Shown: positions 13,004 through 45,187 of the stretch, one piece after another
Layout: every line of letters starts with the position of its first letter
Position numbering within the stretch: the stretch's first letter is position 1
Notes under the pieces: model-generated
What the model saw: only the letters and a program-made list of their open reading frames with translations
What the model was told of the DNA's origin: nothing
Database searches by the model: none
Origin: a virus
Lineage: Duplodnaviria > Heunggongvirae > Uroviricota > Caudoviricetes
IMG/VR virus record: IMGVR_UViG_2695420859_000012
Length of the DNA stretch: 64,000 bases
Reading direction: 5' to 3' (one strand)
Program-made: the position numbers and the translations under genes

Positions 13004-13117
13004 AGATCCCTCTAAAACACACAGAGCGCGTCCATGCGCTCTAAAACAACTTGTTTACTGCATTTTCTAACCAACTTGTTTTCTGGGTTGTTTAATTAGG
13101 TCTGGGCATGTCTTATT

Positions 13118-13177
13118 AAGCCTGCTTCCGTATATATTTAATAAGTTACTTATTATTTATATATACAGAAGCAGGTC
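13118..13177. repeat. Long AT-centred palindromic element (copy 1 of 2), upstream of the small terminase gene
   Basis: CCTGCTTCCGTATATAT...ATATATACAGAAGCAGG inverted repeat; a near-identical copy lies at about 37312-37371. Confidence 0.6.
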
Positions 13178-13199: not shown

Positions 13200-13466
13200 T
13201 TACATCACCAGTAACTTCGCTTTGGCTCGACCTAAAGTGGTTAACCCAAGAGTTCGGCGGTGATAGCGATTGTCACTGCGTTGGCGCGTATGCCCTTTCT
13301 CCACAAGCCCCTTTTTTATCAGAGCGCGAATTGAGAACTGGATACTTTGCTTGGTTGTCTTGTACGGCAAAACTTCAAGCAATTCGTCCAGATCAAGTAG
13401 ATAACCTCGCTCATAACCGAGATTGAGCGTTTTGATGATGTCCTTTTGTTTATCGGTTAACGTCAT
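13200..13466 (-). CDS. Small winged-helix-like DNA-binding protein (hypothetical)
   Basis: 88-aa basic protein, last gene of the ParB/ABC/GNAT operon; HTH-like segment QSIQFSIRALIKKGLVEKG. Confidence 0.4.
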   Translation of the reverse strand: MTLTDKQKDIIKTLNLGYERGYLLDLDELLEVLPYKTTKQSIQFSIRALIKKGLVEKGHTRQRSDNRYHRRTLGLTTLGRAKAKLLVM

Positions 13467-18017: not shown

Positions 18018-18296
18018 ATGAGCGAAAAGAAAACAACTTATTGTCAGGTAGCATTGTCTGATAAGGCCAATGACAAACTTGGAAAGTTTCAAGTGAAACT
18101 AAAAGAAAAAAATATCAAAATGTCTAAGGCTGAAGTCATAAATACCATTCTGGAACAATTGACAATGGCCGACTTTGACAAGGTTATATCTTCTGTCGGG
18201 GCTTCCGCTAAGACTCGTGAGAAAATCATGCGTATCTATGAGAACTCTAATATGACAAAGGAAGATCTCGAAACGCTATTAAGCAGATTAAAATAA
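18018..18296 (+). CDS. Hypothetical protein (92 aa)
   Basis: ORF starting 3 nt after the helicase stop, same strand. Confidence 0.45.
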   Translation: MSEKKTTYCQVALSDKANDKLGKFQVKLKEKNIKMSKAEVINTILEQLTMADFDKVISSVGASAKTREKIMRIYENSNMTKEDLETLLSRLK

Positions 18297-18322: not shown

Positions 18323-18787
18323 ATGAAGTCTCCCATACTGTTCACTTTCTGTTCTAAAACTATCATGAAATACTCGCTTCTCCCTCTACTAACGTTACCA
18401 GTGTTGATGCTTACCGCGTGCCAATCACGCCCAATATCAATCCATGACGCCAAACCAGCACCGCAGGCCAAAGTGTTCAAGTATCAAAGCGCAGCGCCAG
18501 CTACGTTGGTGGTAATGAGAGACACAGGTTTTGTAGGAGCTGGATGTGATGCTTCCATTTTCATCAACGGCGAAACTGTCGCAAAACTGGCTACAGGCGA
18601 AAAAGCGACTTTCCATTTAAATGCCGGAGAATTAATTATGGGTGCATCTCTTGAAGGTGCAGGTTTATGTGCTCTAAACCCCGCTCGTCAAGAGCGAGAA
18701 ACGACTCTGAAGAATGGAGACACAAAAGCGTTCAGGGTGTTCACCAGCAATTCTGGTGACATCGACATTCTGCCAACAACTCTGTGA
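18323..18787 (+). CDS. Putative lipoprotein
   Basis: N-terminal hydrophobic segment ending in lipobox-like LTAC (LLPLLTLPVLMLTACQS); GGGAG RBS before the ATG. Confidence 0.5.
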   Translation: MKSPILFTFCSKTIMKYSLLPLLTLPVLMLTACQSRPISIHDAKPAPQAKVFKYQSAAPATLVVMRDTGFVGAGCDASIFINGETVAKLATGEKATFHLNAGELIMGASLEGAGLCALNPARQERETTLKNGDTKAFRVFTSNSGDIDILPTTL

Positions 18788-18791
18788 TGAC

Positions 18792-19316
18792 ATGACAACC
18801 AAAGATATTACCTACGGTATCCAAGCTGAACTCTGGCCGCGAGATTACACTAACGTTGAAAAACTACTGATGTTCTGGCGCAGAGAACAAATTCCTGTAA
18901 GGGTCACTCTCGAAGATGGCCAGGCGTTTTGCATGTACGTTTATGGCCTCATGCCATCTCGTAACAAAGTTGACCTTTGCCCAGCCCCTTTTGACAAAGA
19001 AAATCGTATAAGGCTCCCACTTGAACGCATTAGTACAATTGAATCAGGTGTGGTTGACAGTATCGCTCACGATTTCAAAGGTCGACTAACAGTTCACCCT
19101 GATTATGTCGATAATCGGCCATCACGCCGCGATTTTTTTGCAATTTGCAACCAAGCCTACAAAGCAAACAAATCTATAAGGGTGTACATGGCGGATGGCC
19201 GTGAAATTGAGGGGGTGTCAGCAGGCGCAGATGCTTGTCAGGTTACACTACGTGTCGAGAACGGTAGAAAAATAGTTGTTTTGTTCGATTGGGTTGAACG
19301 AATTTTGCCTTTTTGA
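18792..19316 (+). CDS. Hypothetical protein (175 aa)
   Basis: ORF from the internal Met (MTTKDITY) immediately after the lipoprotein stop; the track ORF begins at 18714 and overlaps. Confidence 0.4.
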   Translation: MTTKDITYGIQAELWPRDYTNVEKLLMFWRREQIPVRVTLEDGQAFCMYVYGLMPSRNKVDLCPAPFDKENRIRLPLERISTIESGVVDSIAHDFKGRLTVHPDYVDNRPSRRDFFAICNQAYKANKSIRVYMADGREIEGVSAGADACQVTLRVENGRKIVVLFDWVERILPF

Positions 19317-21684: not shown

Positions 21685-22167
21685 TTACACGCCATCAAGG
21701 ATGTGGATGCGGTTGCTTGCGTATACATTCAGCATAAAGTTAGCGCAAAACAGTTTCCATGTATCAACGCCAGCGGTATACGTAATGTTTTTGCATTTAA
21801 TTGCATTGTTGGCGATCCGCATCCCCTGCGATACTGCTTCATCGTCGGAAAATTTGAACGACGATTGAGTTTTAATCCAGACAGAAATCTGCGTAGCGAA
21901 CTCAATCAGCTTGGACTGGCAGAATCGCCCGGAGCGCACCGGAAAGACGAACGTTCCGAATCCAGAATTTACCACATATGCTTTCTCAAATACCCGCGAG
22001 TAACGACGATTGCCAATGATGTCGCGTGCAATAATGCATTTTTCTTGTGCTGACAGTTCTACCGTCTCATTGTCGCGCCATGCACCAAGTACTCGTTTTT
22101 CAATGTCAGAGAACGTTACAGCGATATTGCCATGTGCGGGTGCGTTTACAGTAGCGATAAAATTCAT
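21685..22167 (-). CDS. Hypothetical protein (160 aa)
   Basis: ORF preceded by an AAGGA RBS and the conserved AACAAnTTGTTTTCT upstream element. Confidence 0.5.
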   Translation of the reverse strand: MNFIATVNAPAHGNIAVTFSDIEKRVLGAWRDNETVELSAQEKCIIARDIIGNRRYSRVFEKAYVVNSGFGTFVFPVRSGRFCQSKLIEFATQISVWIKTQSSFKFSDDEAVSQGMRIANNAIKCKNITYTAGVDTWKLFCANFMLNVYASNRIHILDGV

Positions 22168-22517
22168 GATTAATTCCTTATCGTAAATAACAAATTGTTT
22201 TCTTGTTGGTGTTAATTATCGTTGTACGAATAAGGCGTCAAAGTGGAAAGTTGCGGTAGCCGGACGGGAACAGGTGGGTTTGTCGGTTGCCTGGAGGTAA
22301 GAGGTTGGTGTTATTAGCCTGAGGGAAACAGGATGGTCATTTAAGACCACCAATGCTGGTGGCCTTAATAATTATCGCCCGATTACGCTAAGGATCTTTT
22401 CCTCAACTGATTTGTTGTTGCGACTAAACTGCCTTGCGTATCTGATGACAGAAGAGGCGTTTTGCTTTCTGACCATCTCGGCTCTTTCCTTCAGGCGTTT
22501 CTTGAAATCGCCCATAT

Positions 22518-22892
22518 TTACCACCAGGCGCAGAAGGTCAGTCTGTTATTGTGAAAGTCGTGGTTCTTAATCAGATCTTCCACAAGCTCTTTCAACTGCC
22601 CCACATCATGCCAGTAACCTTCGTCGTACTCCTGACTGCCGAAGAAAAAACCTTCCCGAGTAGGCAAGTACTCTTCGCAATTGCTTTCGTTTATGTGCAT
22701 CAAATGAGCTTTCAGAAGACAAATGTCATTCATCGTTAATTCTAAAAGCTCACAATTTTCGACTTCACCTACGTTGCGCTCCATCCACCCAACGAGCGCA
22801 TTGAACTTACGGAAGTAAGCAACCTGCTTTCTGGATGCCTCGTTATTCAGATCGTTTTTAGGCTGTGTCTCGATATAGATATCAAGTCCCAT
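22518..22892 (-). CDS. Hypothetical protein (124 aa)
   Basis: Start placed at the internal Met (MGLDIYIETQ) with AAGGA RBS; conserved upstream element at about 22940-22975. Confidence 0.45.
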   Translation of the reverse strand: MGLDIYIETQPKNDLNNEASRKQVAYFRKFNALVGWMERNVGEVENCELLELTMNDICLLKAHLMHINESNCEEYLPTREGFFFGSQEYDEGYWHDVGQLKELVEDLIKNHDFHNNRLTFCAWW

Positions 22893-22983
22893 GATGGTTT
22901 CCTTATTAACTTGCTTCAGTAAAATCATTTTCACAAATCAGATAAGGCAGAAAACAAATTGTTATCGGGCTTAATAAAATGGC

Positions 22984-23008
22984 GCGGTTTACGCGCCATT
23001 TAAAGAGG
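22984..23008 (-). terminator. Rho-independent terminator
   Basis: AATGGCGCG-GTTTA-CGCGCCATT hairpin followed on the reverse strand by TTTTATT, just downstream of the 23010-23405 gene. Confidence 0.55.
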
Positions 23009-23009
23009 A

Positions 23010-23405
23010 TTAAGCGAATACGCTTTCAGGGATTAAGGTGTCGGCAGGAATGCCAGAGGTAATGCGCAGGCCGTACTGACCAATCCAGGTAGTGTTGGTA
23101 TTCAGGCTGGAGGCGAATACGGTGTTAACCATATTCATCATGGTTTCAAACACCTCTTCATCAACCTGGCGGAAGTAGTTCTCGATTTTCAGCAGCAGCG
23201 GGTCAGTTGCATCGAGAATGGACTGGTATTGAGTCGCGTACTCGCCGCCGGAGGCATCACCTTTACGCACGATCGTACTGGCCTGGACTTCGGCACCAGT
23301 TTCGGTGTTGTACGTAACAACGGTAATTTTTGCCACATTCTTACCTTCGGCGGTTTCAGAGGCATAGTAAACATCAACTGTCAGTTTTTCGCGTTTAACG
23401 GTCAT
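23010..23405 (-). CDS. Hypothetical protein (131 aa)
   Basis: ORF with RBS, an upstream AT-rich palindrome and a downstream terminator. Confidence 0.5.
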   Translation of the reverse strand: MTVKREKLTVDVYYASETAEGKNVAKITVVTYNTETGAEVQASTIVRKGDASGGEYATQYQSILDATDPLLLKIENYFRQVDEEVFETMMNMVNTVFASSLNTNTTWIGQYGLRITSGIPADTLIPESVFA

Positions 23406-23530
23406 TTCACTCTCCGTAGTGTATTGGTTATTTTTATATTCTATAATCGTAAGTATTTACTTACAATACAAAAAGCCCCGTAAGGATGGCGGGGCTGTCG
23501 TACTGTCGACTAATTGCCACTTGCACATTA

Positions 23531-23842
23531 TCAGGCTATTGCCATCACTGATGCTCTCTGAATTTCTTGCTGGGCCACGCGGTTAACTTCCATCAAGGCC
23601 AGTTCGAGCTGATGTTCCGGCCACATTCTTTGAAACGCCATCCAGCCTTTTCCACGCTGGCGACGAACATTCATTACATAACGAGTAAAGGTGTTTTTAT
23701 CGAAAGACACCGCTGTTTCACGGAACAGACGAATAGAGGTTCCATTGGCAACGATGTCCAGCAAAGTTAATTGAGCAACCAGCGCAGGCTTCTCTTTTCT
23801 CTTCTGGTCTTTGTCCAGACCAAGAACCAATGATTTTTTCAT
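23531..23842 (-). CDS. Hypothetical protein (104 aa)
   Basis: Start placed at the internal Met (MKKSLVLGL); conserved upstream element directly 5'. Confidence 0.45.
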   Translation of the reverse strand: MKKSLVLGLDKDQKRKEKPALVAQLTLLDIVANGTSIRLFRETAVSFDKNTFTRYVMNVRRQRGKGWMAFQRMWPEHQLELALMEVNRVAQQEIQRASVMAIA

Positions 23843-23996
23843 CACAACTCCGTAAACAACTTGTTTTCTCAATGGCGTAAATAATACCAATAAAAAAACG
23901 GCTACAAAGCATAATGATCAGGTGCATGAGCGATATGCAGGTTCTTCCCTGCGGCTACAGATTAAGTTAAGCCAGCAATGCTGGCTTTGGTTGGGA

Positions 23997-24326
23997 TTAC
24001 GCGAATACCTCAAGAAACTCCTGAACGTCCCAATGCTGGACGAGGTGAAGATAGACCTTAGAAATCACGTCATTTTCGCTATCGCATGTGAAGTAGTACT
24101 TCTGGCTGCGGTTGTATGTGTCCACACAAAATTCGCTCATATCCATAAAGTCAGCATCATCACCCAGGTCGCTAATCATCAAAGCAGGTGCATCATCACG
24201 AGTCATCAGCTCCAGCACCCATCTTGAATTAATCAGAGTGGAAGACCAACCTTCCAGCTCATAAAACTGGTCAAACTCTTTTTGAGTCAATTTCTTAATT
24301 TGGTTGATGTCGATATTTGCAAACAT
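23997..24326 (-). CDS. Hypothetical protein (110 aa)
   Basis: Start placed at the internal Met (MFANIDINQ) preceded by AAGGA; conserved upstream element directly 5'. Confidence 0.45.
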   Translation of the reverse strand: MFANIDINQIKKLTQKEFDQFYELEGWSSTLINSRWVLELMTRDDAPALMISDLGDDADFMDMSEFCVDTYNRSQKYYFTCDSENDVISKVYLHLVQHWDVQEFLEVFA

Positions 24327-24499
24327 AAAGCAATCCTTAAACAAGATGTTTTCTTAATGGTGTTATTATCGCAATAACGCACAGGCGAAAAAGGATTTTA
24401 TTCCGGTGAATGTGGTTTTGGCAGTGAGTTTTCAGGTTCAGTACAGAGTACACTTTTTACATTATTCTGATTTAGTGGCCGAAGATGGCTGGTGGGCAG

Positions 24500-24850
24500 A
24501 ATAATCATCTCCCCGAAAACCTACTGAAATCGATTGTGACCCGTTGGCTGTCTGGCACAATTACGCTGTAACTGGGCATTCAGAGGGAATCCAGCGGTAA
24601 GTAGGTTCGCCTTCACGTGAGCGCCTCTCTTCTTCCCGCACATTACAGGTGGGTAGCCGCAACTCTCCCTCTCGCTATGCCGGTACGCCGCCGTTCCTGA
24701 ACCGGCATCGAGCCTTTTCCCGAAATCCACACAGGCAACTCGACCGTTTCCCTGAAAACCTCCAGCCGTTCCCCGAAGGCAACCCAGCCGTTTCTGTAGC
24801 GGGATGCAACCTTTTCCCTGTATGGACCGAAGGCTGACCGTAGGGGTGTT
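24500..24850. repeat. Degenerate direct repeats of a CCGTT(T)CC(C)GAAAA-type unit (second locus at about 21537-21680)
   Basis: At least six related copies here (CCGTTCCTGAACC, CCTTTTCCCGAAATCC, CCGTTTCCCTGAAAACC, CCGTTCCCCGAAGG, CCGTTTCTGTAGCG, CCTTTTCCCTGTATGG) and four at 21537-21680. Confidence 0.5.
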
Positions 24851-25019
24851 ACGGGGGATAAAATCAGGAGTTGAATAAATACGAAAAAGGAGGCGACACC
24901 CCTCCTTCCCTCCCCACTTATACATACCTGGCTTCTTCGCTATACATGTTGTGTTTTATCTGTCTCAACCTCTCTATAGGCGTTAATGCTCACTCCTTCC
25001 AGAATGTTCTATACGGCAA

Positions 25020-25620
25020 CTATTTCTGTTGGTGAATTGGGTGTGTTGTTCTCTCTGTCGGTGTATGTGGTTTCGTTCGTTTTGCGGTGGTTCTTCTATG
25101 GGGTGTTCTCGTCGTTTTGGTGATTGTTCTTCTCCGTGTATGGAGTAATGGCAGGTGGGCGATTCCTTTCGTTGTTGTGTTTGAGTTGTTTGTCTGGAGT
25201 GTGTGAAAGGCTTTTGCAGTTATTCGTGTATTGGGTAATGGCATTTCCCGTGATTGTTGTGTTTCGTGTCTTTTGGGATTGAGAGAAACCTTGCGGTTAC
25301 AGGCTTCGTTGGGGTTTCAGTGATTCTGGTGTTCTTCGCTGTTTGGGGAATGGCGTGTCGTGGGTATCGCGCGTATGAATGTTTTCGGATTGCCTGTGAA
25401 AGTTAGGTTGGTTGTCCGGTAGCCTGGGGAGAAGAGGTGGGTCTTTTCGGTAGCCTGGGGAGAAGAGGTGGGTCTTTTCGGTAGCCTGCCATAAAGAGGT
25501 TGGTTGTTTTTGGAAATGGCATTTGTGTTATTTAGTTGTTTTGTTATGCCTGAAAATAAGTTGTTTATATGGTTGTGTAACGCAACGGGAGCGATTTTGA
25601 GCGTGTGTTTTTGTTGGTAG
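25020..25620. repeat. G+T-skewed non-coding repeat region with a 32-bp tandem direct repeat (about 25418-25500)
   Basis: Forward strand strongly G/T-rich for about 600 bp; recurring GG(A/G)(G/A)(T/A)AATGGC units at about 25142, 25232, 25345 and 25511; GGTAGCCTGGGGAGAAGAGGTGGGTCTTTTC repeated about 2.3 times in tandem. Only low-complexity ORFs are present. Confidence 0.6.
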
Positions 25621-25921
25621 TGTGTTGGGTCGTCTGTGGTGAAAATTGGACGCTGTGGCGCTGTCTGCTGCGTAGAGTTACGGGTATAAGCAGTGATGTG
25701 TGAAAACGTCAATTTTTTAGACCAAATCGGGTGAAAGCGTTGATGTTTCGTTGATCTGTTATTCAGTTGTTTTCTTGATTGTATAAACAACTATAACTTA
25801 TTGATATTTAAGGATGTGATTGCGGGTATGGAAGAAGAGTAGTGGCGATCAACGGATTCTTATAGAAAAGAATCAAATTGTGACCGCCATTATCAACTGA
25901 TTGATTTGTTTACTTGTGTAG

Positions 25922-26320
25922 TCAGTTCTCGAAATGAATAGGGTCAACGTAATGCCGCTCACCGCTTTTACCATTACACAGCACTGTAACTTTCGCCTTT
26001 TCACTCCAGGCTGAGTATAGAAAGTTCCCATCAGGTTGAACATGGTAACGAGAGAAGTAAACATCGCCGACTGAGGCGTCGAACATGTTCCTATCTTTTT
26101 CACTTTGGGCAAGCGAGATGGATATCACCGAATTCCCATTTGGGGAAACGATTTTAAATTTATTCCCTATATCCATAACAATATTGTAACCAGGTAATTG
26201 CTTGTGTGTTTCCGGATCTATTTTCATGCATCGTGGGTACACGATAGTGTTAGGCTCTTCAACTGGCGTGGCATTAGCAGAAAGCACAAAAAATATTAGT
26301 GCCAATGGTGCATATTTCAT
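25922..26320 (-). CDS. Secreted protein (hypothetical, 132 aa)
   Basis: Predicted signal peptide (MKYAPLALIFFVLSANA). Confidence 0.5.
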   Translation of the reverse strand: MKYAPLALIFFVLSANATPVEEPNTIVYPRCMKIDPETHKQLPGYNIVMDIGNKFKIVSPNGNSVISISLAQSEKDRNMFDASVGDVYFSRYHVQPDGNFLYSAWSEKAKVTVLCNGKSGERHYVDPIHFEN

Positions 26321-26432
26321 TTATCCCTCACAATTTCCAATTTTCCAGACCATCGTCTATTTCAGCGTCAGGGTGGAATTGTACCGCATCAAATCCTACA
26401 TCGAGCACCTTTCGAATGTTCTTGATGGTTTG

Positions 26433-26621
26433 CTATGTGACACCGTAATCACGCAGCTTTTCTTCCCTCCCCTGACTCCCCCATACTCCGTTTCTGTACC
26501 CAATTGAGTCCGAGATTGTATGGTGCTCGAAACAGATATTTGGTAGACACTCAGAGTCATGCTGTGTAACGAGGGTAGGGCTACTAACTGTCGTCTTATA
26601 CAATTTGGTGAGTTTCAGCAT
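26433..26621 (-). CDS. Small hypothetical protein (62 aa)
   Basis: Start overlaps the stop region of the upstream gene; no other support. Confidence 0.25.
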   Translation of the reverse strand: MLKLTKLYKTTVSSPTLVTQHDSECLPNICFEHHTISDSIGYRNGVWGSQGREEKLRDYGVT

Positions 26622-26857
26622 TTTACCACCCCGTTCGGAAACAACTCATTCGCCGTAGTTGATATAACCTCCCAATTAACGCCGACATCAGCGTTATGGC
26701 ATTGTCTGATTTTTTGCATCACCTGTACGCATTGTTCATCAGTGAGATCTGTCCTTACTTCAGCAATATCTTCTTTGTGCCACATAACCATGAGTAAGGG
26801 TTCGTCTTCTGGATAGTTTTTCAGTTTCTCGATGATTTCTTTTGCTGTTCCAAACAT
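26615..26857 (-). CDS. Hypothetical protein (80 aa)
   Basis: Start placed at the second Met after a GGAG RBS; two copies of the conserved upstream element directly 5'. Confidence 0.45.
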   Translation of the reverse strand: MFGTAKEIIEKLKNYPEDEPLLMVMWHKEDIAEVRTDLTDEQCVQVMQKIRQCHNADVGVNWEVISTTANELFPNGVVKC

Positions 26858-26969
26858 CTTCATCTCCTAAACAATTTGTTTTCTTATATGACTTATTATC
26901 TCAATCAACAAAAGGTAGAAAACAAATTGTTTTAGAGTTTGTTAAAGTCAGAAGGGGTTGTGTCTATAT

Positions 26970-26995
26970 GAAAATGCCCGGCGTGTTGCCGGGCA
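26970..26995 (-). terminator. Rho-independent terminator of metG
   Basis: GCCCGGC-AACAC-GCCGGGC hairpin followed by ATTTTCAT on the reverse strand, 25-45 nt after the metG stop. Confidence 0.7.
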
Positions 26996-27016
26996 TTGCG
27001 AAGAGAGGTTGTTTAA

Positions 27017-29050
27017 TTACTTAACCTGGTGGCCAGGTTTAGCACCAGCATCCGGGCTTAACAGGAAGATATCTTTCCCGCCGGGGCCAGCAGCCATCAC
27101 CATGCCTTCAGAGATACCGAAGCGCATTTTACGTGGTGCCAGGTTAGCCACCATAATGGTGTGACGACCAATCAGTGCCTGTGGATCTGGATAAGCGGAA
27201 CGGATGCCTGAGAAGACATTACGCTTTTCACCACCGAGATCCAGCGTCAGGCGAAGCAGTTTGTCAGAACCTTCTACAAACTCTGCGTTTTCAATCAGCG
27301 CCACGCGCAGGTCAACTTTGGCGAAGTCGTCAAAGGTGATAGTTTCCTGAATCGGGTCGTCAGCCAGTGGGCCAGTTACCGGTGCGGCTGTGGCTTTCAC
27401 TTCTTCTTTGGATGCTTCCACCAGTGCTTCAACCTGCTTCATATCGATGCGGTTATACAGTGCCTTGAACGGATTCACTTTATGGCCCAGCAGCGGTTGC
27501 TGGATACCATCCCAGGTCAGTTCTGTATTCAGGAATGCTTCTGCACGTTCAGTCAGTTTCGGCAGTACCGGTTTCAGGTACGTCATCAGCACGCGGAACA
27601 GGTTAATGCCCATAGAGCAAATCGCCTGCAGATCGGCATCGCGTCCTTCCTGCTTTGCCACCACCCACGGAGCCTGTTCATCAACATAGCGGTTAGCCAG
27701 GTCAGCCAGTGCCATGATTTCACGGATAGCTTTGCCAAATTCGCGGCTTTCCCATGCTTCGCCAATCACTTCAGCGGCATCAGTAAAGGTTTTGTACAGT
27801 TGCGGGTCAGCCAGTTCGCTTGCCAGCACGCCGTCAAAACGCTTGTTGATAAAGCCTGCATTACGGGAGGCCAGGTTAACCACTTTGTTAACGATATCGG
27901 CATTCACACGCTGAACGAAATCTTCCAGGTTGAGATCGATATCATCAATGCGCGAAGAGAGTTTCGCAGTGTAGTAGTAACGCAGGCTGTCGGCGTCAAA
28001 ATGATTCAGCCAGGTGCTGGCTTTAATAAAGGTGCCGCGAGACTTGGACATCTTCGCGCCGTTCACCGTCACATAGCCGTGAACAAACAGGTTGGTCGGC
28101 TTGCGGAAGTTGCTGCCTTCCAGCATGGCAGGCCAGAACAGGCTGTGGAAGTAAACGATATCTTTGCCGATGAAGTGGTACAGCTCGGCGGTGGAGTCTT
28201 TCTTCCAGTATTCGTCGAAGCTGGTAGTGTCGCCGCGTTTGTCGCACAGATTCTTGAAGGAACCCATGTAGCCAATCGGCGCGTCCAGCCAGACGTAGAA
28301 GTATTTGCCCGGTGCGTTCGGAATTTCAAAACCGAAGTAAGGTGCGTCACGGGAGATATCCCACTGTTGCAGGCCGGATTCAAACCACTCCTGCATTTTG
28401 TTTGCCACCTGCTCCTGCAACGCACCGCTGCGGGTCCATGCCTGCAACATTTCGCTGAAAGAAGGCAGATCAAAGAAGAAGTGTTCGGAATCACGCATTA
28501 CCGGTGTAGCGCCAGAAACCACTGATTTCGGCTCGATCAGTTCCGTCGGGCTGTATGTCGCGCCGCAGACTTCACAGTTATCGCCGTATTGATCCGGCGC
28601 TTTACATTTCGGGCATGTGCCTTTTACAAAACGGTCCGGCAGGAACATGCCTTTTTCCGGGTCGTACAGCTGAGAGATGGTGCGGTTTTTAATAAAACCG
28701 TTCTCTTTCAGGCGAGTATAGATAAGCTCGGACAACTGACGGTTCTCTTCGCTGTGCGTCGAGTGATAGTTGTCATAGCTGATGTTAAAGCCTGCGAAAT
28801 CAGTCTGATGTTCCTGACTCATTTCGCCAATCATCTGTTCCGGTGTGATACCAAGCTGCTGTGCTTTCAGCATGATTGGCGTACCGTGGGCATCGTCGGC
28901 ACAGATGAAATTAACCTCGTGGCCGCGCATTCGCTGGTAACGAACCCAGACATCAGCCTGGATGTGCTCCAGCATATGGCCGAGGTGGATTGAGCCGTTA
29001 GCGTACGGCAGCGCGCACGTCACCAGAATTTTCTTCGCGACTTGGGTCAT
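27017..29050 (-). CDS. metG: Methionine--tRNA ligase (host-type, near-identical to E. coli MetG by recall)
   Basis: 677-aa protein from [29 protein letters not shown] with HLGH and KMSKS (GAKMSKSRG) class I signatures, C4 zinc knuckle and C-terminal tRNA-binding domain. The track ORF extends 43 codons further upstream to 29179. Confidence 0.95.
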
Positions 29051-29207
29051 AGTAGGCATTACTTCTTTGTAGTGAAAAGGGGCTTGATAGTAACAAAATG
29101 GCCTTATGTCTGCCATGTGATAACAGCATTTCTCATAAATGATTAAATGTCGTAGCTGGAGTACACTACAAGGCGACAATTGCGCAAATTAAAATAAAGG
29201 AGACGGG

Positions 29208-30308
29208 ATGAGCGAGTCCAAATCGCCGGATGCCCTGAGAGCAATGGTAGCCGGTACGCTGGCTAATTTTCAGCACCCAACCCTGAAACACAACCTGACT
29301 ACGCTTAAAGCGTTACACCATGTTGCGTTGATGGATGACACACTGCATGTCGAACTAATCATGCCTTTCGTGTGGAATAAGCCTTTTGAAGACCTGAAAG
29401 AGCAATGTAGTGGTGATCTGCTACGTATCACTGGCGCAAAGGCTATTGACTGGAAGCTGTCGTACAACATTGCCACGCTTAAGCGCGTCAAAAACCAACC
29501 AGGCATTAATGGCGTTAAGAACATTATCGCCGTCAGCTCAGGCAAGGGCGGCGTGGGTAAATCCTCCACGGCGGTAAACCTGGCACTGGCGTTGGCTGCT
29601 GAAGGTGCGAAAGTTGGTATTTTGGATGCCGATATCTATGGTCCATCAATTCCAACCATGCTGGGCGCGGAAAACCAACGTCCAACCTCACCGGACGGTA
29701 CTCACATGGCACCTATCATGTCTCATGGCCTGGCAACCAACTCTATTGGTTATCTGGTCACCGACGACAATGCAATGGTGTGGCGTGGACCGATGGCCAG
29801 CAAGGCGCTGATGCAGATGTTGCAGGAAACACTGTGGCCTGATCTGGACTATCTCGTTCTCGATATGCCACCGGGCACTGGTGATATTCAATTGACGCTG
29901 GCGCAGAACATTCCTGTAACTGGTGCGGTTGTGGTAACTACGCCGCAAGACATCGCGCTGATCGATGCGAAGAAAGGCATTGTGATGTTCGAAAAAGTCG
30001 AAGTGCCGGTACTGGGTATCGTTGAAAACATGAGTGTGCATATTTGCAGTAACTGCGGTCATCACGAGCCAATTTTTGGCACCGGTGGCGCACAGAAACT
30101 GGCCGAGAAATACAACACGCAGTTGTTAGGCCAAATGCCACTTCATATCTCTCTTCGTGAAGATCTGGATAACGGAACACCAACCGTTATTAGTCGTCCA
30201 GATAGTGAATTTACGGCTATTTATCGTGACCTCGCAGATCGCGTTGCTGCCCAAATGTATTGGCAAGGTGAAGTAATACCTGGCGAAATCGCATTCCGCG
30301 CAGTGTGA
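29208..30308 (+). CDS. apbC: Fe-S cluster carrier ATPase Mrp/ApbC (host-type)
   Basis: P-loop ([20 protein letters not shown]), conserved CxxC (CSNCGHHEP); divergently arranged with metG as in enterobacterial chromosomes. Confidence 0.95.
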
Positions 30309-30317
30309 TAAAAAGGT

Positions 30318-30444
30318 GGTGCTTTTGCCGTTACGCACCACCCCGTCAGTAGCTGAACAGGAGGGACAGCTGATAGAAACAGAAGCCACTGGAGCACCTC
30401 AAAAACACCATCATACACTAAATCAGTAAGTTGGCAGCATCACC
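30318..30444 (-). mobile_element. insA: IS1 left-end remnant (terminal inverted repeat plus first 24 codons of insA), truncated internally
   Basis: Track ORF 30126-30389 (-) begins [24 protein letters not shown], the InsA N-terminus, then reads antisense mrp. Upstream of it lies the IS1 terminal repeat GGTGATGCTGCCAACTTACTGAT (reverse-complemented on the forward strand, ending at about 30442-30444). Confidence 0.8.
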
Positions 30445-30606
30445 GAGCGCCAGCGGCGAACATATGAGCTTCGGAAATACTAGACATTCTTAACTCCGTT
30501 GTTTTCTAGTTGTGGTTATTTTCACAAATAAGAAAAGATAGAAAACAATTTATTTAAGGCCACAACTTATGGCCTTTATTTATTCATGCCGAAGGATTTG
30601 TAGCGT

Positions 30607-30987
30607 CTAATTGCCGGATAAAATGGGGTGAGGTGCTTGCCAGTAGGCTCCACCGTTCCATGTGAACCCCATGCGAATAAGAGTGTTTATTGCGGCTTTG
30701 GTAGACTCCGATTCGACACTGGCTTTACGAAACTCTTGAACCTCTTTCGCCAACTTGTATGTAATTGTGCAGGGGACGATTGCAGCCCAGCCTTTCTCAT
30801 GACTGTTAATGACCATCTGGATGTGACCATCCAGAATAGGTTGATTAGGCATGTTATTGAAAATGTCTGCCTGTTTTTGAATGTGAAGAAAAAGCCTTGC
30901 CAGCGCCATTTGCTCACTACGAGACAAGGGATTATCAAGAGGGCTTTTTGCAAAAGCTGCTATACGCTGTGCATCAATGCCAAACAT
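30607..30987 (-). CDS. Hypothetical protein (126 aa)
   Basis: ORF translationally coupled to the upstream gene; hairpin downstream. Confidence 0.45.
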   Translation of the reverse strand: MFGIDAQRIAAFAKSPLDNPLSRSEQMALARLFLHIQKQADIFNNMPNQPILDGHIQMVINSHEKGWAAIVPCTITYKLAKEVQEFRKASVESESTKAAINTLIRMGFTWNGGAYWQAPHPILSGN

Positions 30988-31691
30988 CAGCGCACCTCAC
31001 CATCTTTATGGCTGGAGTTAACTTCCGTCATTAAATGTCTGACGTAATCGACAAGAGAGCCGCCTGGTGGAATCTGGCATTCCTCAACTAACTGGAAGTA
31101 GATATCCGCTGCATTACGTGTATTGCTACCCGCGCATATTCTTTCTTCCCGAAGTGCATGAAGCTCGTTGATCAAACGGTCACACTCTCCGTTACGCTGA
31201 TCCACAACGGCCTCAAGCTCTGCGACGCGTTCACCTGGCGTCTTACCTTCTTTGCGTTGGATGGTAACGACGAAATCGCCAATTGCAGGGACGTTGTAAT
31301 CCAGCTCAAGGTAGTTTTTGGCACCGCTGCGGACGAACTCACCCGCGAACATGGTGGCGAACATCGCAGAGGCCACTTCTCCGTTGAAAAGTGACTCCAG
31401 ATCTAACGGAGTCCCGGCAGCAAGAGCCTCTTTTGCTGTATCCATTGCATCCATGAACCGATCAAACTCACTAGCGCGCTTTTCCAGGTCTTTCCATTGC
31501 TCGCTCCAACGTTTGGCAACGAAGTCTATGAATGTTTTCGCGGATTCATCAAAATTCCCCTCAAACTTAACGATGCCTTTATCAATAATGATCTGGCCTA
31601 CCGCATCCTCTGCATAACCTTTCAATGTAAACTTGAAAGGAAAATCGGAATGGCCTGTGACGTTAAAATGCTCTAACTGGAGGTTGCTCAT
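30987..31691 (-). CDS. Hypothetical protein (234 aa)
   Basis: ORF with an upstream AT-rich palindrome. Confidence 0.5.
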   Translation of the reverse strand: MSNLQLEHFNVTGHSDFPFKFTLKGYAEDAVGQIIIDKGIVKFEGNFDESAKTFIDFVAKRWSEQWKDLEKRASEFDRFMDAMDTAKEALAAGTPLDLESLFNGEVASAMFATMFAGEFVRSGAKNYLELDYNVPAIGDFVVTIQRKEGKTPGERVAELEAVVDQRNGECDRLINELHALREERICAGSNTRNAADIYFQLVEECQIPPGGSLVDYVRHLMTEVNSSHKDGEVR

Positions 31692-31752
31692 GTGTTTTTC
31701 TCTTATCGTTTAGTAACTACATTCTTACATAAATTAAGTAAGCATTTACCTA

Positions 31753-33438
31753 TCATTTAACGCGTTTGAAAACGTATACGCTGACTGTGATCCCTGTGTC
31801 TTCAAACTCGTTGGTAAACGACTTCCCTCTGGCATAAACGTAATTATCCATCGTCATCCAGTCCAGTATTGGCGCAGTGCCCGGCAATACTGCTACAAGA
31901 CGCCCGCCGACTTTCAGATGCCCCAGCGCAGCCAGCGTGTGCTCTCTATGACGACCAAGCGAGTACGGCGGGTTCATAACGATTTTGTCGAACTGATAAC
32001 CTGCGTTGTCCTCAGACCACTTTATGAAGTCGCAGCAAATCGTGTTCGTATACCCTTTTCCACGCAGGATATCAGCGAAGAGAGGTGCGATTTCTATGCA
32101 GGTAACATCTTCCAGATCGGCGTCAATATAGGCCAGAAGATCCCCACGTCCGGCTTGAGGCTCCAACAGCTTCTCACCAGGCTTCAATTCAGTGGCTCTT
32201 GCAACGTACTCAGCAATCAAGCGTGGGGTAGGGTAGAACTGGTGTGATTTTGTATCCGGTATTAAACCGGTAGCCACAATCGTATTTAGCGTATGGCCGA
32301 TGTCATACGGGAACTGCCAGTGCTTTTTCTCCTGCACGCCGCCAATGAAGCTCAGTGTGCGCTCAAGCTCTTCCACCTGCGACTTCTGGAGAGCTGAATC
32401 AGAGAAGTACCATACACCTTTGTCTTTGCTCAATCGCCCGTCACGAAGCGCAGTGCGAACCGGCACGGAGATCGTCTTCTGGATTAAACCGAACTGCTTT
32501 GGTGCCCGTGTTTTTGGCGCAGTTCGGCATGGCGCGGGGATTGCAGCAGGCATACTGTAAGCCAGCACCTCATTCAACTTCCAGGCCACGTCAGGATGTA
32601 TTTCAAAGTGAACGTTGCCGTTCTTGAACATCTTCACGCGCATCAGATTTCCATCGACGTTCATCCAGTCACCGGTCTGGCAGTCGTTTGCCCGATACGC
32701 AGCTGATAGCACCTCAGCAGTGCGGTTGATGGTAATAAATTCTTTGTGCGCGAAGAAATGAAGCAAGACACGCAGATCGTCGATGTAGTCCTCTTTGCGA
32801 TAGTTCACGCTAACGCTGTCCCGCCAGAAATCAGAAATGCAGTCAGCGATTATCAGCCGCTCGCTGAAACCATTTGTCTTATTTGTCTTGTGCACAGGAC
32901 TCAGCGCCTTAAACAAGCCATACACGCGCTCAGAGAGATATTTGTGCCTGTCATTCAGCAAATTAAGCATCGTGGGTATGACCGTTTCTGCTTTGAACTC
33001 CGGTACACCAACGAACTCTTTAACCTTCATCTGGTAGCCGGTTCTGTCAGTTTTGATGACTTCCTGTTTGCCCTCTATAAACTGCTCGCGCCACTCATCT
33101 CGACGGGAAGCTGGCATGATCAGCAAAACGTTAGTCATGTCCGTGACCTTCCTCCAGTACTCGGCCCAAATATTCTGTTTCACCCATTCCAGATCGACTT
33201 TATCCAACCAACCTCGATTTAAACGCGAGCGATCTTCATCTGGTCGATGGTTTAGTTTCAGCAGGCGATTAATCATGTTGTGGCGTTCGTCGCCATAAAC
33301 GAAGTTGTGAACCTGATACATGAAGGCGATCTCTTTCTCGCACTCGGCCACAATTTCGTGGATAACGTTCATTTCCTGACGATAATCGATAGCAGTGTTT
33401 GAGCTGGCATCGTCGATGATGGAAAGGGCTGTATTCAT
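31753..33438 (-). CDS. DNA N6-adenine methyltransferase with large N-terminal domain of unknown function
   Basis: C-terminal about 190 aa carry motif I-like LEPQAGRGDL and motif IV (IVMNPPYS); the N-terminal about 370 aa are unassigned. Conserved upstream element directly 5'. Confidence 0.6.
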   Translation of the reverse strand: MNTALSIIDDASSNTAIDYRQEMNVIHEIVAECEKEIAFMYQVHNFVYGDERHNMINRLLKLNHRPDEDRSRLNRGWLDKVDLEWVKQNIWAEYWRKVTDMTNVLLIMPASRRDEWREQFIEGKQEVIKTDRTGYQMKVKEFVGVPEFKAETVIPTMLNLLNDRHKYLSERVYGLFKALSPVHKTNKTNGFSERLIIADCISDFWRDSVSVNYRKEDYIDDLRVLLHFFAHKEFITINRTAEVLSAAYRANDCQTGDWMNVDGNLMRVKMFKNGNVHFEIHPDVAWKLNEVLAYSMPAAIPAPCRTAPKTRAPKQFGLIQKTISVPVRTALRDGRLSKDKGVWYFSDSALQKSQVEELERTLSFIGGVQEKKHWQFPYDIGHTLNTIVATGLIPDTKSHQFYPTPRLIAEYVARATELKPGEKLLEPQAGRGDLLAYIDADLEDVTCIEIAPLFADILRGKGYTNTICCDFIKWSEDNAGYQFDKIVMNPPYSLGRHREHTLAALGHLKVGGRLVAVLPGTAPILDWMTMDNYVYARGKSFTNEFEDTGITVSVYVFKRVK

Positions 33439-33579
33439 AATTACACCATTAAATAATTTGTTTTCTGATTGGTGTAATTATCGCAAACTTGAAAAGGCAT
33501 AAAAGCTGCATTCATAGGCGTTACAGCAGATTTAAGGCGTAAAAATGGGGGCTGTCGCCCCCTGTCGACTGGTGCTGTA

Positions 33580-34146
33580 TTAGAGTGCGTATTGCGTTTT
33601 GTGCGGCTGCTTATTCAAGTCATGGCGATGCGTGAGCTCCCGCATCATGTCTTCAAGGCGACTCTTTGTGTCGTCGAGCTGGTCGGCCATTGCACCTAAA
33701 AGCTGGCGAACGGCCATCGGACCGTCGCTGTTTAGTGATGGCATTTTAGAACCTGCTTTAGAAGACATAAGGTTGATTGCAGACATCAACATCGTTAGAG
33801 AGGATTTAAGCCCGGCAATTTCACGATCTTTGCTGGCAATAATCGTCTCACTTTTGTTACCGTCATCAGTTTCTTGAGTCTCGCTCACCATATCCAAAGT
33901 CGCTTGCAACTTATCAGCTCTCTCTTTTTCAGCAAGGTAATGAACACCGAAATGGTGTGCCAAAGCTACAATCTGAGTTGGCTCTTCAAAGGTGGAATTA
34001 AAATTAAGTATTGTAAACAGTCTCTCAAATATGGAAACGTCTTCTATTCCTCGAAGAATGGCTAACATTTTGACCAGTTCATTAGCATCCATTTCTTCGA
34101 ATAAGGCGTTTTGTTCATCAGCTATCGCTTTGCATTTCTTGCACAT
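33580..34146 (-). CDS. Hypothetical protein (188 aa)
   Basis: ORF with AGGA RBS and the conserved upstream element. Confidence 0.5.
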   Translation of the reverse strand: MCKKCKAIADEQNALFEEMDANELVKMLAILRGIEDVSIFERLFTILNFNSTFEEPTQIVALAHHFGVHYLAEKERADKLQATLDMVSETQETDDGNKSETIIASKDREIAGLKSSLTMLMSAINLMSSKAGSKMPSLNSDGPMAVRQLLGAMADQLDDTKSRLEDMMRELTHRHDLNKQPHKTQYAL

Positions 34147-34285
34147 GTGTTTTTCCTAATGCTTAAACAAGTTGTTTTCTTATTGTCTTTATTGTGATGT
34201 GGCATAAAAGGGGAGCAAGCTAAACGTAAAGGTGCAAACTCTCTATTTCGGTCAACGAAACACAAGGGCCATTTGGCCCTTGTCA

Positions 34286-34444
34286 TTAACACTTTGCTTT
34301 ACGAACTAACGGATAAGCGAAGTAGATCGCCAAACCAATGAGGACGCCATCAGAAATGACAGACATCATCTTTCCCGTAAAATCCACCAACACCGCCATC
34401 ACCAGAAGAGCAATGACGATCACAAGCCGGAATCTCTCAAGCAT
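34286..34444 (-). CDS. Small membrane protein (52 aa, hypothetical; below ORF-track threshold)
   Basis: My own translation MLERFRLVIVIALLVMAVLVDFTGKMMSVISDGVLIGLAIYFAYPLVRKAKC, two hydrophobic segments; its ATG overlaps the TAA stop of the upstream gene. Confidence 0.3.
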   Translation of the reverse strand: MLERFRLVIVIALLVMAVLVDFTGKMMSVISDGVLIGLAIYFAYPLVRKAKC

Positions 34445-34869
34445 TAGAGATAAGCATCCAGTGACAACTGAAGCGCCTGGGCGATCTTTTTCAGTGCCTG
34501 CTCTTCTTGTTCACCAATGCCGTCCTGATCGGCAATATCAAGGCACAGACACAGAACATCGACCGCCTCTGGAGTACCCGCAATATCAGACAGCTCACGA
34601 ATAGCCTGTGCATTAGCAGAACGAGGGGACGCTTCGTAACGAGCACGGATATTGGCGCTCATTTGGGCAATTTCACCAGCAAACGGAGAAAACGCAGGCA
34701 GAGCTGCAATTGTCTTCTCAAGAATGGCAATTTCTTTTGCGTCACATGTGCCGTCGGCATAGGAGATCATGTACGCGCCCCACACGGTGGCCTCAACCGC
34801 ATCACGGTTCTCCATTTTTTTGACTTCGATAACAGCTTTACGAGTTTTCTTTTTGAAGAAACCTAACAT
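34444..34869 (-). CDS. TerB-like domain protein (hypothetical)
   Basis: About 140 aa; loose resemblance to TerB/DjlA-N type domains (ISYADGTCDAKEIAILEKTIA...QEEQALKKIAQAL). Conserved upstream element present. Confidence 0.35.
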   Translation of the reverse strand: MLGFFKKKTRKAVIEVKKMENRDAVEATVWGAYMISYADGTCDAKEIAILEKTIAALPAFSPFAGEIAQMSANIRARYEASPRSANAQAIRELSDIAGTPEAVDVLCLCLDIADQDGIGEQEEQALKKIAQALQLSLDAYL

Positions 34870-34962
34870 GTGCTTTCCTTTTATTATTTGTCAAAACAAG
34901 TTGTTTTCTAATTACATAAATTGCTTACGCAGAGATGGTCAATGCATATGCACTAACAGCCG

Positions 34963-35151
34963 TCAGAAATAACCAAGTACCGAACCAACTGGAAAAACAA
35001 AAATCCCAACTACACGAGCCAAGGTCATGCCAGCCTGAAACTGGAGATCGCCAGAGCAAACAAGTTTTATAATGTTCGATACCCAACCGGCGGCCATAAG
35101 GGCAAGAATTGCCAGCCAAATTTTTCCAAAGTGATTTGAAAACCAGTTCAT
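34963..35151 (-). CDS. Small membrane protein (62 aa, two predicted TM segments)
   Basis: Hydrophobic segments IWLAILALMAAGWV and VVGIFVFPVGSVLGYF; ATG overlaps the stop of the upstream ORF. Confidence 0.4.
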   Translation of the reverse strand: MNWFSNHFGKIWLAILALMAAGWVSNIIKLVCSGDLQFQAGMTLARVVGIFVFPVGSVLGYF

Positions 35152-37311: not shown

Positions 37312-37371
37312 CAGCCTGCTTCCGTATATTAATAATTAATATGTAGTTATTTATATATACAGAAGCAGGCT
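37312..37371. repeat. Long AT-centred palindromic element (copy 2 of 2)
   Basis: AGCCTGCTTCCGTATATTAATAATTAATATGTAGTTATTTATATATACAGAAGCAGGCT, near-identical arms to the element at 13118-13177. Confidence 0.6.
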
Positions 37372-40830: not shown

Positions 40831-41306
40831 TACGACCTTCTGTATACGATCTGCGAAAAGCCAGGCTCTTCCTCGCTGGCTCGTTGGGTATAAGCTGTTT
40901 CAACAGGCACAAAGCCTAAGTTACGCATCATGCTTGCCGGGAAGAATGCATCGGCGTTTGGTACATCAATGCCGATGTGGGAGAGCCAAATCTCTTCAAC
41001 ATGCGGCATGAATAGCGAGTAAATTTGTTCCCCGCCAATCACCCACACAGGCTCTGGTAATCGCAACACATCATCCACACCAGCAGGGTAGAATCCATTT
41101 GGTACAAAGCCATGAGAGCGCGTCAAAACGAGGTTATGACGCTCTGGAAGAGGGCGTTTGAGACTTTCCATCGTTTTACGCCCCATAACGACAGTGGCGT
41201 TTTTGGTGAGTCTCTTAAATAGCTTCAGATCGGTAGAACAACGCCAGGGGAGTTCATTCGCTATGCCGATCTCATAGTTACGGCCAACAGCAGCGATCAT
41301 CTTCAT
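40830..41306 (-). CDS. folA: Dihydrofolate reductase
   Basis: 158 aa; DHFR N-terminal signature (IAAVGRNYEIGIANELPWRCSTDLKLFKRLTKNATVVMGRKTMESL). Confidence 0.85.
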   Translation of the reverse strand: MKMIAAVGRNYEIGIANELPWRCSTDLKLFKRLTKNATVVMGRKTMESLKRPLPERHNLVLTRSHGFVPNGFYPAGVDDVLRLPEPVWVIGGEQIYSLFMPHVEEIWLSHIGIDVPNADAFFPASMMRNLGFVPVETAYTQRASEEEPGFSQIVYRRS

Positions 41307-45082: not shown

Positions 45083-45187
45083 GTGTTTTTCCTTTTTCTT
45101 TTTTATGTGTTTAAACAAGCTGTTATCTTATTTGTTTAAACAAGGCTTACAAATCAAAGAGAAGGTGGGGATACACCCCACCATATG

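Follow-up and report, generated by a model that had tools for sequence, protein, structure and literature searches.

A dispersed palindromic element of an SSU5-like phage-plasmid is a conserved, predicted promoter-plus-operator unit

What does one palindrome do in front of so many small genes of a viral genome? The question is raised by a 64,000-nucleotide record, IMGVR_UViG_2695420859_000012 (the window below, meaning this whole stretch of DNA), in which a first-pass annotation had noticed an element of about 35 bp with the core AACAAnTTGTT and had read it as a phage-specific promoter or operator class. Our analysis consisted of computation together with one published RNA-seq table (PMC9928086, table S1). 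Positions 22000–35000 of the window are 97% identical to Escherichia phage Cyrano, which is plasmid pLF82 of E. coli LF82, and have remoter relatives in Salmonella phage SSU5 and in Klebsiella phage-plasmids. As the alignment with Cyrano spans the structural genes, terS, the small-gene region and nrdAB, the window is part of an SSU5-like phage-plasmid; the majority of its genes lie on the minus strand.

We found that the repeated element is real and is a conserved promoter-plus-operator unit, and that its sequence is new, a published description not being found in the literature searched. In the mechanism that we propose, the 35-bp element would combine an ordinary extended −10 sigma-70 promoter in its upstream part with a 17-bp dyad operator, to which a dimeric or dimer-of-dimers repressor would bind and block RNA polymerase. 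The repressor would sit at about +14 (class A), at about −38 (class B) or across the start (nrdB and the helicase). The same operator would precede some 15–20 operons, among them most small accessory genes, the replicative helicase operon, cobT, nrdB and parA, and would stand in tandem before the late operon that begins with terS, so that the whole set would form one regulon, off in the plasmid-prophage state. We assign a probability of roughly 0.62 to this dispersed operator, with one global repressor acting on palindromes within sigma-70 promoters.

A palindrome at fixed places on predicted promoters

The exact core, AACAANTTGTT, has 8 matches in the window against 0.10 expected (no shuffle reached 8), and the 16-mer AGAAAACAANTTGTTT with at most three mismatches has 30 against 4.4. 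Aligning the copies and building a weight matrix, the check that the first-pass annotation had proposed, recovered 13 sites between genes, together with a half-site and a weak copy. The resulting 17-bp dyad consensus is AGAAAACAAnTTGTTTA; its half-sites, AAAAC and GTTTT, are separated by one helical turn. Matrix matches above 18 bits number 15 in the window and 0.045 in 200 dinucleotide shuffles, a circular comparison in that the matrix was trained on these sites. Twelve of the 13 sites fall outside open reading frames (ORFs) of at least 100 amino acids, that is, in 16.6% of the window, and the 13th lies inside an over-extended TTG ORF. Matrix matches at 18028 and 19266 were both dropped as lying inside coding sequence, the former also not being conserved in relatives. 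Every copy reported in the first pass was present, with correct coordinates. The palindromic core has one or two mismatches at the sites starting at 24339, 33451, 13069 and 45113.

The arrangement of the sites relative to predicted −10 hexamers is regular. The part of the element that had been written as CGATAAT...ACACC holds a −10 hexamer with a preceding TG, in the forms TGCGATAAT, TGAGATAAT, TGGTATTAT or TGTGAAAAT. We surveyed the geometry in the window, SSU5 and the Klebsiella plasmid pJN2-26, all start sites being predicted, and obtained 45 sites, 34 in the orientation of the gene (class A) and 11 inverted. A −10-like hexamer was recognisable at 23 of the 34 class A sites, its last base lying 20–21 bp upstream of the dyad centre in 19 of these 23, and a TGn extension was present at 17 of them; assuming the usual 7-nt distance from −10 to start, the dyad is centred at about +14. 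In 8 of the 11 inverted sites, GATAAT or GAAAAT follows exactly 31 bp downstream of the dyad centre (class B, centred at about −38), with a TG extension at seven of these eight promoters. Promoters with both kinds of site have them 51 bp apart, roughly on one helix face. At the helicase promoter the −10s of four genomes differ (TAGTAT, TACGAT, CATAAT and, in Cyrano, a weaker TAATAC) and keep approximately the same register, 1–2 nt from the motif. A conserved motif variant at nrdB, AGATAAC, itself makes the −10 TAAGAT, and the A-to-T change is kept in Cyrano, SSU5 and pJN2-26. At these two promoters the dyad straddles the predicted start, with its centre at about +3 to +6. We infer that the promoters fire where predicted.

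The first-pass annotation had placed the element directly 5′ of the ribosome-binding site (RBS). The copies at 22949, 26917 and 30540 are instead inverted and lie 31 bp upstream of the −10, overlapping the −35 region and not beside an RBS. The suggestion of a phage-specific promoter found no support. The upstream part of the element reads TGnGATAAT or TGnGAAAAT with a weak −35, which is an ordinary sigma-70 extended −10, and extended −10 promoters require neither a −35 nor an activator. In most copies the −10 comes before the palindrome, a position in which an activator or specificity element would not be expected. A sigma-28 promoter was rejected in a by-eye check: CGATAA resembles GCCGATAA, but there is no TAAA at the right distance.

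The same geometry bears on the idea that the palindrome serves a phage-specific promoter class, switched on during lytic growth, as its activator site or specificity element. Such a role would agree with the silence of the linked genes in the lysogen (see below), with a terS promoter that has no recognisable −10 and with class B centres at about −38, close to the class II activator position of −41.5. Most copies, on the other hand, are centred at about +14, downstream of a near-consensus extended −10 that by established sigma-70 knowledge needs no activator, and a protein bound there blocks polymerase rather than recruiting it. The annotations of Cyrano, SSU5 and pJN2-26 list no gene for an RNA polymerase or a sigma factor. 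We regard an activator site as quite improbable.

The other half of the first-pass suggestion, an operator class, was supported: the palindrome is a DNA dyad whose predicted place, on the promoter or immediately after it, is fixed, relatives conserve it, and the genes downstream of it are silent in the lysogen. Conservation in related genomes had been named beforehand as a test, and the motif recurs at orthologous promoters. We counted 19 intergenic matrix sites in Cyrano, 26 matrix matches above 14 bits in SSU5, 16 sites in pJN2-26, 7 in Yersinia pestis pMT1, 18 in K. oxytoca pCAV1099-111 and 12 strong matches in 40 kb of a K. quasipneumoniae plasmid. The motif precedes terS, parA, the helicase gene, cobT, nrdB and many accessory genes, at orthologous promoters whose flanks have diverged. 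The only site in a distant SSU5-like plasmid of Moellerella is a degenerate one at parA. One promoter cassette from the window matched 894 PLSDB plasmids of Enterobacteriaceae, including 456 of Klebsiella, 260 of Escherichia, 90 of Enterobacter and 49 of Salmonella.

Double-stranded site or RNA leader

A palindrome close to start codons might be a DNA dyad or the stem of an RNA hairpin, and the pattern of substitutions bears on the choice. We compared 61 unique sites taken from five genomes: departures from the palindrome always affect one side alone, and compensatory changes are absent. At the four core pairs 20 of 20 departures are one-sided and symmetric positions are equally conserved; the pair that would close the hairpin is broken in 8 of the 61 sites. 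No Rfam family matched anywhere in the window. On the absence of compensatory changes and the lack of an Rfam match, we rejected an RNA hairpin. The cobT site, moreover, is flipped in orientation between Cyrano and SSU5 and unchanged in position, as a symmetric DNA site would allow. Taken together, the one-sided changes, the Rfam result, the inverted copies upstream of promoters and the cobT flip make it more likely that a symmetric protein reads the site as double-stranded DNA.

An operator at the RNA level need not be a hairpin, and the phage-plasmid has a protein that could read one. The FljA-family protein encoded at 18774–19316 (+) would, on this account, bind the motif in 5′ leaders, block translation and destabilise the mRNAs. 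Its family assignment is firm (PF03614, E = 2e-84), and its AlphaFold2 model (predicted local distance difference test score 82) has two tandem Hfq/Sm-like domains, each superposing on Hfq at about 1.1 Å over 57 residues. The protein occurs in six of the six motif-bearing genomes examined, whereas the Moellerella plasmid, which is free of the motif, lacks it. Class A copies directly adjoin the Shine–Dalgarno (SD) sequence, 5–40 nt before the start codon, the sense orientation is found in 34 of the 45 sites, and the A-rich and U-rich halves of the motif would suit Sm-type binding faces. FljA, a relative of the phage-plasmid protein, blocks translation of fliC and destabilises its mRNA, and the fliC leaders of Salmonella and Citrobacter have CAAGTTGT just before the SD sequence.

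Against this stand the symmetry and the placement of the motif. Inverted-complement symmetry is meaningless in single-stranded RNA, and the sites show no covariation and the broken closing pairs described above. Of the eleven inverted sites, eight lie exactly 31 bp upstream of a −10 hexamer and would not be transcribed from that promoter, and the predicted starts of the helicase and nrdB promoters fall within the motif. Beyond an 8-nt core, the matrix score of the fliC leader is at chance, 41% of random windows being as good, and the motif is unchanged where the FljA-family protein has diverged to 39–40% identity. We consider it unlikely that the element is the recognition site of this tandem-Sm protein, acting on the promoter-proximal leader. 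If it were, FljA, the flagellar phase-variation repressor of Salmonella, would be a domesticated phage-plasmid master regulator, and the host fliC leader, with its CAAGTTGT beside the RBS, might be a further target of SSU5-like plasmids, for instance pHCM2 of S. Typhi. Homologues of the FljA-family protein were found in 835 plasmids, including Y. pestis pMT1.

Silence in the lysogen and candidate binders

The state of the linked genes in a lysogen can be read from the LF82 RNA-seq table. The first genes of 12 of 15 motif promoters have values of 5.7–12.9, against a plasmid median of 9.8, and the exceptions are the par operon (50–89), the helicase (21) and CYRAN_111 (25.5) (PMC9928086, table S1). 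The par operon, expressed in the lysogen, is of a kind termed autoregulation-prone. Promoters that have a near-consensus extended −10 and are nevertheless silent fit repression by the proposed operator. Cyrano is induced by genotoxic stress, and induction by ciprofloxacin has been reported (PMC9928086).

Two other features of Cyrano were noted. CYRAN_81 (Cyrano L003 28657–28791, corresponding to the window near 36.5 kb), annotated as a "gene" of 44 amino acids, reaches 117 in the lysogen against the median of 9.8. It is 89–95% conserved and has a GTG start, a translation that is not protein-like and no Rfam match; a non-coding RNA is one possibility. Outside the window, at Cyrano L002 ~40850–41090, a LexA-box-like sequence, CACTGTATAAGTAAACAGTAT, separates the integrase gene from CYRAN_43, which is expressed at a very high level. 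Judged by its sequence, it may link the phage-plasmid to the SOS response, in line with the reported ciprofloxacin induction.

We infer that a repressor binds the dyad, and compared the proteins that could be this putative binder, the grades that follow being conditional on the operator reading. The leading candidate, still a tentative one, is the homologue of CYRAN_29, a ParG-like protein of the ribbon-helix-helix type that partners ParA and whose gene lies outside the window. Its DNA-reading strand (KSRTxSxEDE) is invariant, it is expressed in the lysogen, and a site lies at its own promoter, even in the diverged promoter of K. oxytoca; Moellerella, however, has the protein too, and pMT1 lacks it. 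Second, and doubtful, comes a host factor of Enterobacteriaceae. It would fit the motif being unchanged where all candidates encoded by the element have diverged to 38–51% identity. We know of no E. coli transcription-factor consensus that matches, the sites of KdgR, Cra and IHF differing in spacing. A still weaker case can be made for a 71-aa winged-helix-like protein of the helicase operon, the homologue of CYRAN_37, which co-occurs with the motif, but pMT1 has sites without it and its expression is weak. There is a slight chance that the FljA-like protein acts on DNA, although a DNA dyad is not what an Sm fold would obviously read, and what is left of the probability goes to something else.

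Other proteins were set aside. The winged-helix protein encoded at 13200–13466, beside the terS sites, keeps its recognition helix without any change in the Moellerella plasmid, which is free of the motif, and is poorly expressed in the lysogen. A 92-aa ribbon-helix-helix-like protein (18018–18296) is unlikely, its DNA-facing strand residues varying while the motif stays constant; a motif-like match in the first codons of its gene is not conserved. CYRAN_43, the highest-expressed gene of the lysogen, is absent from pJN2-26. The first-pass annotation had pointed to small DNA-binding proteins encoded beside the copies, none of which could be linked to the motif, and sequence searches of the candidate proteins against PDB, Pfam and PHROGs gave no DNA-binding assignment. 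Looking for an independent ParA/ParG cassette outside the family, we met a sole candidate, which is a remnant truncated by an insertion sequence (IS). No half-site array that might be a centromere was found near parA.

The XRE "putative repressor" CYRAN_45 was likewise rejected: its own divergent region is free of the motif and has a different conserved dyad, and SSU5 has the motif without this gene. That 14-bp dyad, GGTAAGTnCTTACC, is conserved beside the XRE repressor gene and has further copies in the late regions of SSU5 and pJN2-26, and none in the window; its positions are Cyrano L002 42606–42619, pJN2-26 90502 and SSU5 2034, 27477 and 78712. With about 0.01 copies per genome expected by chance, the dyad probably marks a second regulon.

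Several points weigh against the dispersed operator. Every promoter position is a prediction, and repressor binding is putative. A plain scan for TTGACA-N16-18-TATAAT found 12 sites in the window against 18.3 in shuffles and misses the class A promoters owing to their weak −35 hexamers. A large number of the copies belong to paralogous cassettes, and inheritance, as opposed to selection, could account for part of the fixed spacing. The dyad has asymmetric flanks, and the single orientation of 34 of 45 sites relative to the gene also fits a role at the RNA level. The silence of the linked genes, which read at background in a table covering the lysogen, could equally mean a missing activator. 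Finally, no candidate binder passes all tests, the ParG-like protein being present in the motif-free Moellerella plasmid too.

SSU5-like phage-plasmids are common in clinical Enterobacteriaceae, and in the literature on them we found nothing published on how plasmid life and lysis are controlled. As proposed here, the cis-element would define a regulon of replication, nucleotide-metabolism, partition, late and accessory genes, and the 17-mer offers a direct route to the master regulator, for example by protein pull-down.

Sites along the window, cassette exchange and known systems

The late operon is preceded by two sites in the terS leader. Site 1 (AGAAAACAAGTTGGTT, 13069–13084, minus strand) is found also in SSU5, pJN2-26 and the K. 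oxytoca and K. quasipneumoniae relatives, and site 2 (AGTAAACAAGTTGTTT, 13044–13059, minus strand) lies 25 bp from it, centre to centre. Both are conserved over 38 IMG/VR variants of the region; the 9-bp spacer between them is variable. Between the operators and the terS RBS stands a terminator-like hairpin, GAGCGC-atggac-GCGCTC followed by TGTGTGTTTT (13024–13041, minus strand), in whose stem compensatory changes (GAGCAC/GTGCTC) and G–T wobbles preserve the pairing among 38 sequence variants. This hairpin with its T-run suggests attenuation or antitermination control of the late genes.

A second repeated element occurs just upstream of the terS promoter, beside an adenine methyltransferase gene and right after the par operon (window 13121–13175 and 37315–37369; Cyrano L002 31159–31211). 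It is an inverted repeat of about 55 bp, CCTGCTTCYGTATATA...TAAGTnACTTA...TATATACRGAAGCAGG, with TATAAATA contained in one arm, and its pattern has 6 matches against 0.42 expected. Equivalents are present in SSU5, pJN2-26 (two) and pMT1 (one pair), and none in the K. oxytoca and Moellerella relatives. A centromere, a late-activator site and a bidirectional terminator are all possibilities.

In the small-gene region, the class A operator at 22188–22203 (minus strand; predicted centre about +14) precedes a 160-aa gene (21685–22167), with the −10 GATAAT at 22215–22220 (minus strand) and a TTGACG −35-like hexamer upstream. The next operator, at 22949–22964 (plus strand), is of class B and lies over the −35 region of the predicted promoter of gene 22518–22892, whose −10, TGTGAAAAT, is at 22927–22932, 31 bp downstream of the dyad centre. 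Class A operators follow on the minus strand at 23854–23869, a perfect 16-mer with the −10 TGGTATTAT at 23881–23886, and at 24339–24354 (AGAAAACATCTTGTTT; −10 TGCGATAAT at 24365–24370). The weak copy, TGAAAATAAGTTGTTT (25551–25566, plus strand; 13.8 bits), is degenerate and lies in a long intergenic region, and the orthologous site of SSU5, at position 90738, scores 22 bits.

One promoter of the window has two full operators, class A at 26869–26884 (minus strand; −10 TGAGATAAT at 26895–26900) and class B at 26917–26932 (plus strand), with dyad centres at 26875 and 26926 and thus 51 bp apart. Such an A/B pair on one promoter was also found in Cyrano, twice in SSU5 and in pJN2-26. Directly upstream lies a full-length methionyl-tRNA synthetase gene (so annotated in Cyrano), at 27017–29179 on the minus strand. 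Two copies had likewise been reported at 30480–30560. The class B operator at 30540–30555 (AGAAAACAATTTATTT, plus strand; −10 TGTGAAAAT at 30518–30523) is complete, but the copy at 30480–30510 is only a half-site: AGAAAACAAcggagtt (30490–30509, minus strand) occupies the class A position of this promoter, and an SD sequence replaces the right half. SSU5 has the same arrangement at 85600. Just downstream of this promoter, a 130-bp fragment (window ~30315–30448) is 99% identical to IS1 (insA region). The gene that follows the promoter in Cyrano and SSU5 is missing or truncated in the window.

The remaining sites are all on the minus strand. A class A operator at 33451–33466 (−10 TGCGATAAT at 33477–33482) precedes a DUF4942 methyltransferase-like gene (31753–33438), and a perfect 16-mer of class A at 34165–34180 (−10 CACAAT at 34191–34196) precedes gene 33580–34146. 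Before a TerB-family gene (34444–34869), another perfect 16-mer in class A orientation (34894–34909) has no clear −10 at the standard distance. Between nrdA and nrdB the operator AGATAACAGCTTGTTT (45113–45128) has the predicted −10 TAAGAT as its left edge.

The homology between the window and Cyrano breaks at the motif or at its −10, namely at 26864 (right after the 26869 site), at 30513 and at 22336–22369. The same promoter precedes different genes in different relatives, and entire promoter-plus-gene modules have been gained or lost between them. By these alignments, the promoter-operator unit is also a mosaic boundary for accessory-gene exchange between relatives. A P1-like phage (MH422554.1, 2478–2540) has one copy of the class B cassette (hairpin, operator and TGAGAAAAT) in an accessory region near humD and phd-doc, a sequence match that suggests exchange of promoter cassettes between phage-plasmid families.

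It might then be asked whether the element is mainly a mobile promoter cassette and recombination boundary, with a palindrome that descent and gene shuffling have kept and that no dedicated protein binds. The breakpoints, the shuffled genes and modules, the copy in the P1-like phage and a similarity among copies that extends over about 60 bp would all agree with this. The motif, however, also occurs alone, in non-homologous contexts before the core genes terS, parA, helicase, cobT and nrdB, where it is the best-conserved block between diverging flanks, and descent alone would not hold 17 bp constant where proteins are only 40–50% identical. As a full account of the element we find the cassette very improbable; as a property of it, the cassette is compatible with the operator model and no real alternative to it.

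Among known systems, T4 PeSL cassettes and IncN CUP repeats resemble the element as promoter cassettes repeated before small genes in a variable region, with mosaic breakpoints at the cassette. The core of the element is instead a dyad of the protein-binding type, which occurs also apart from the cassette at core-gene promoters, and there is no obligatory stem-loop. The FljA–fliC leader offers a FljA-family gene, here carried by a phage-plasmid, and a target leader that contains CAAGTTGT just upstream of the SD sequence. Unlike that leader, the motif is a DNA-type palindrome found also upstream of promoters, the fliC leader sharing 8 nt only, at a chance score. A FljA-type target would always lie in the transcribed leader in sense orientation, whereas 11 of 45 sites are inverted, 8 of them 31 bp upstream of the −10. 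The predicted geometry is that of lac O1, with a dyad centred some 11–14 bp downstream of a sigma-70 start and an auxiliary operator upstream, although the auxiliary site is here at −38, 51 bp away, as opposed to 92 or 401 bp in lac.

In its distribution, the element is like the sites of KorB of IncP plasmids (a 13-bp palindrome, OB) and of omega of pSM19035 (a ribbon-helix-helix protein reading heptad repeats), in which a short site stands at many promoters of a replicon, including the partition operon. A copy is found at the parA promoter in every ParA/ParG-bearing relative examined, in Moellerella in degenerate form. It differs from both in sequence and in having no centromere-like array near parA, and a ParG-like protein occurs also in a relative without dispersed sites. 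P1 operators for C1 are asymmetric 17-mers, ATTGCTCTAATAAATTT, read by a monomer. The consensus AGAAAACAAnTTGTTTA is symmetric and of unrelated sequence, not an asymmetric 17-mer, and no C1 homologue was seen. Both elements nevertheless belong to phage-plasmids, and in both one operator sequence is scattered before many operons, including those of replication and late control; one repressor, in our case a putative binder, would hold the lytic programme off. By analogy, the system would most closely resemble in kind the dispersed operators of P1 C1, IncP KorB or omega of pSM19035.

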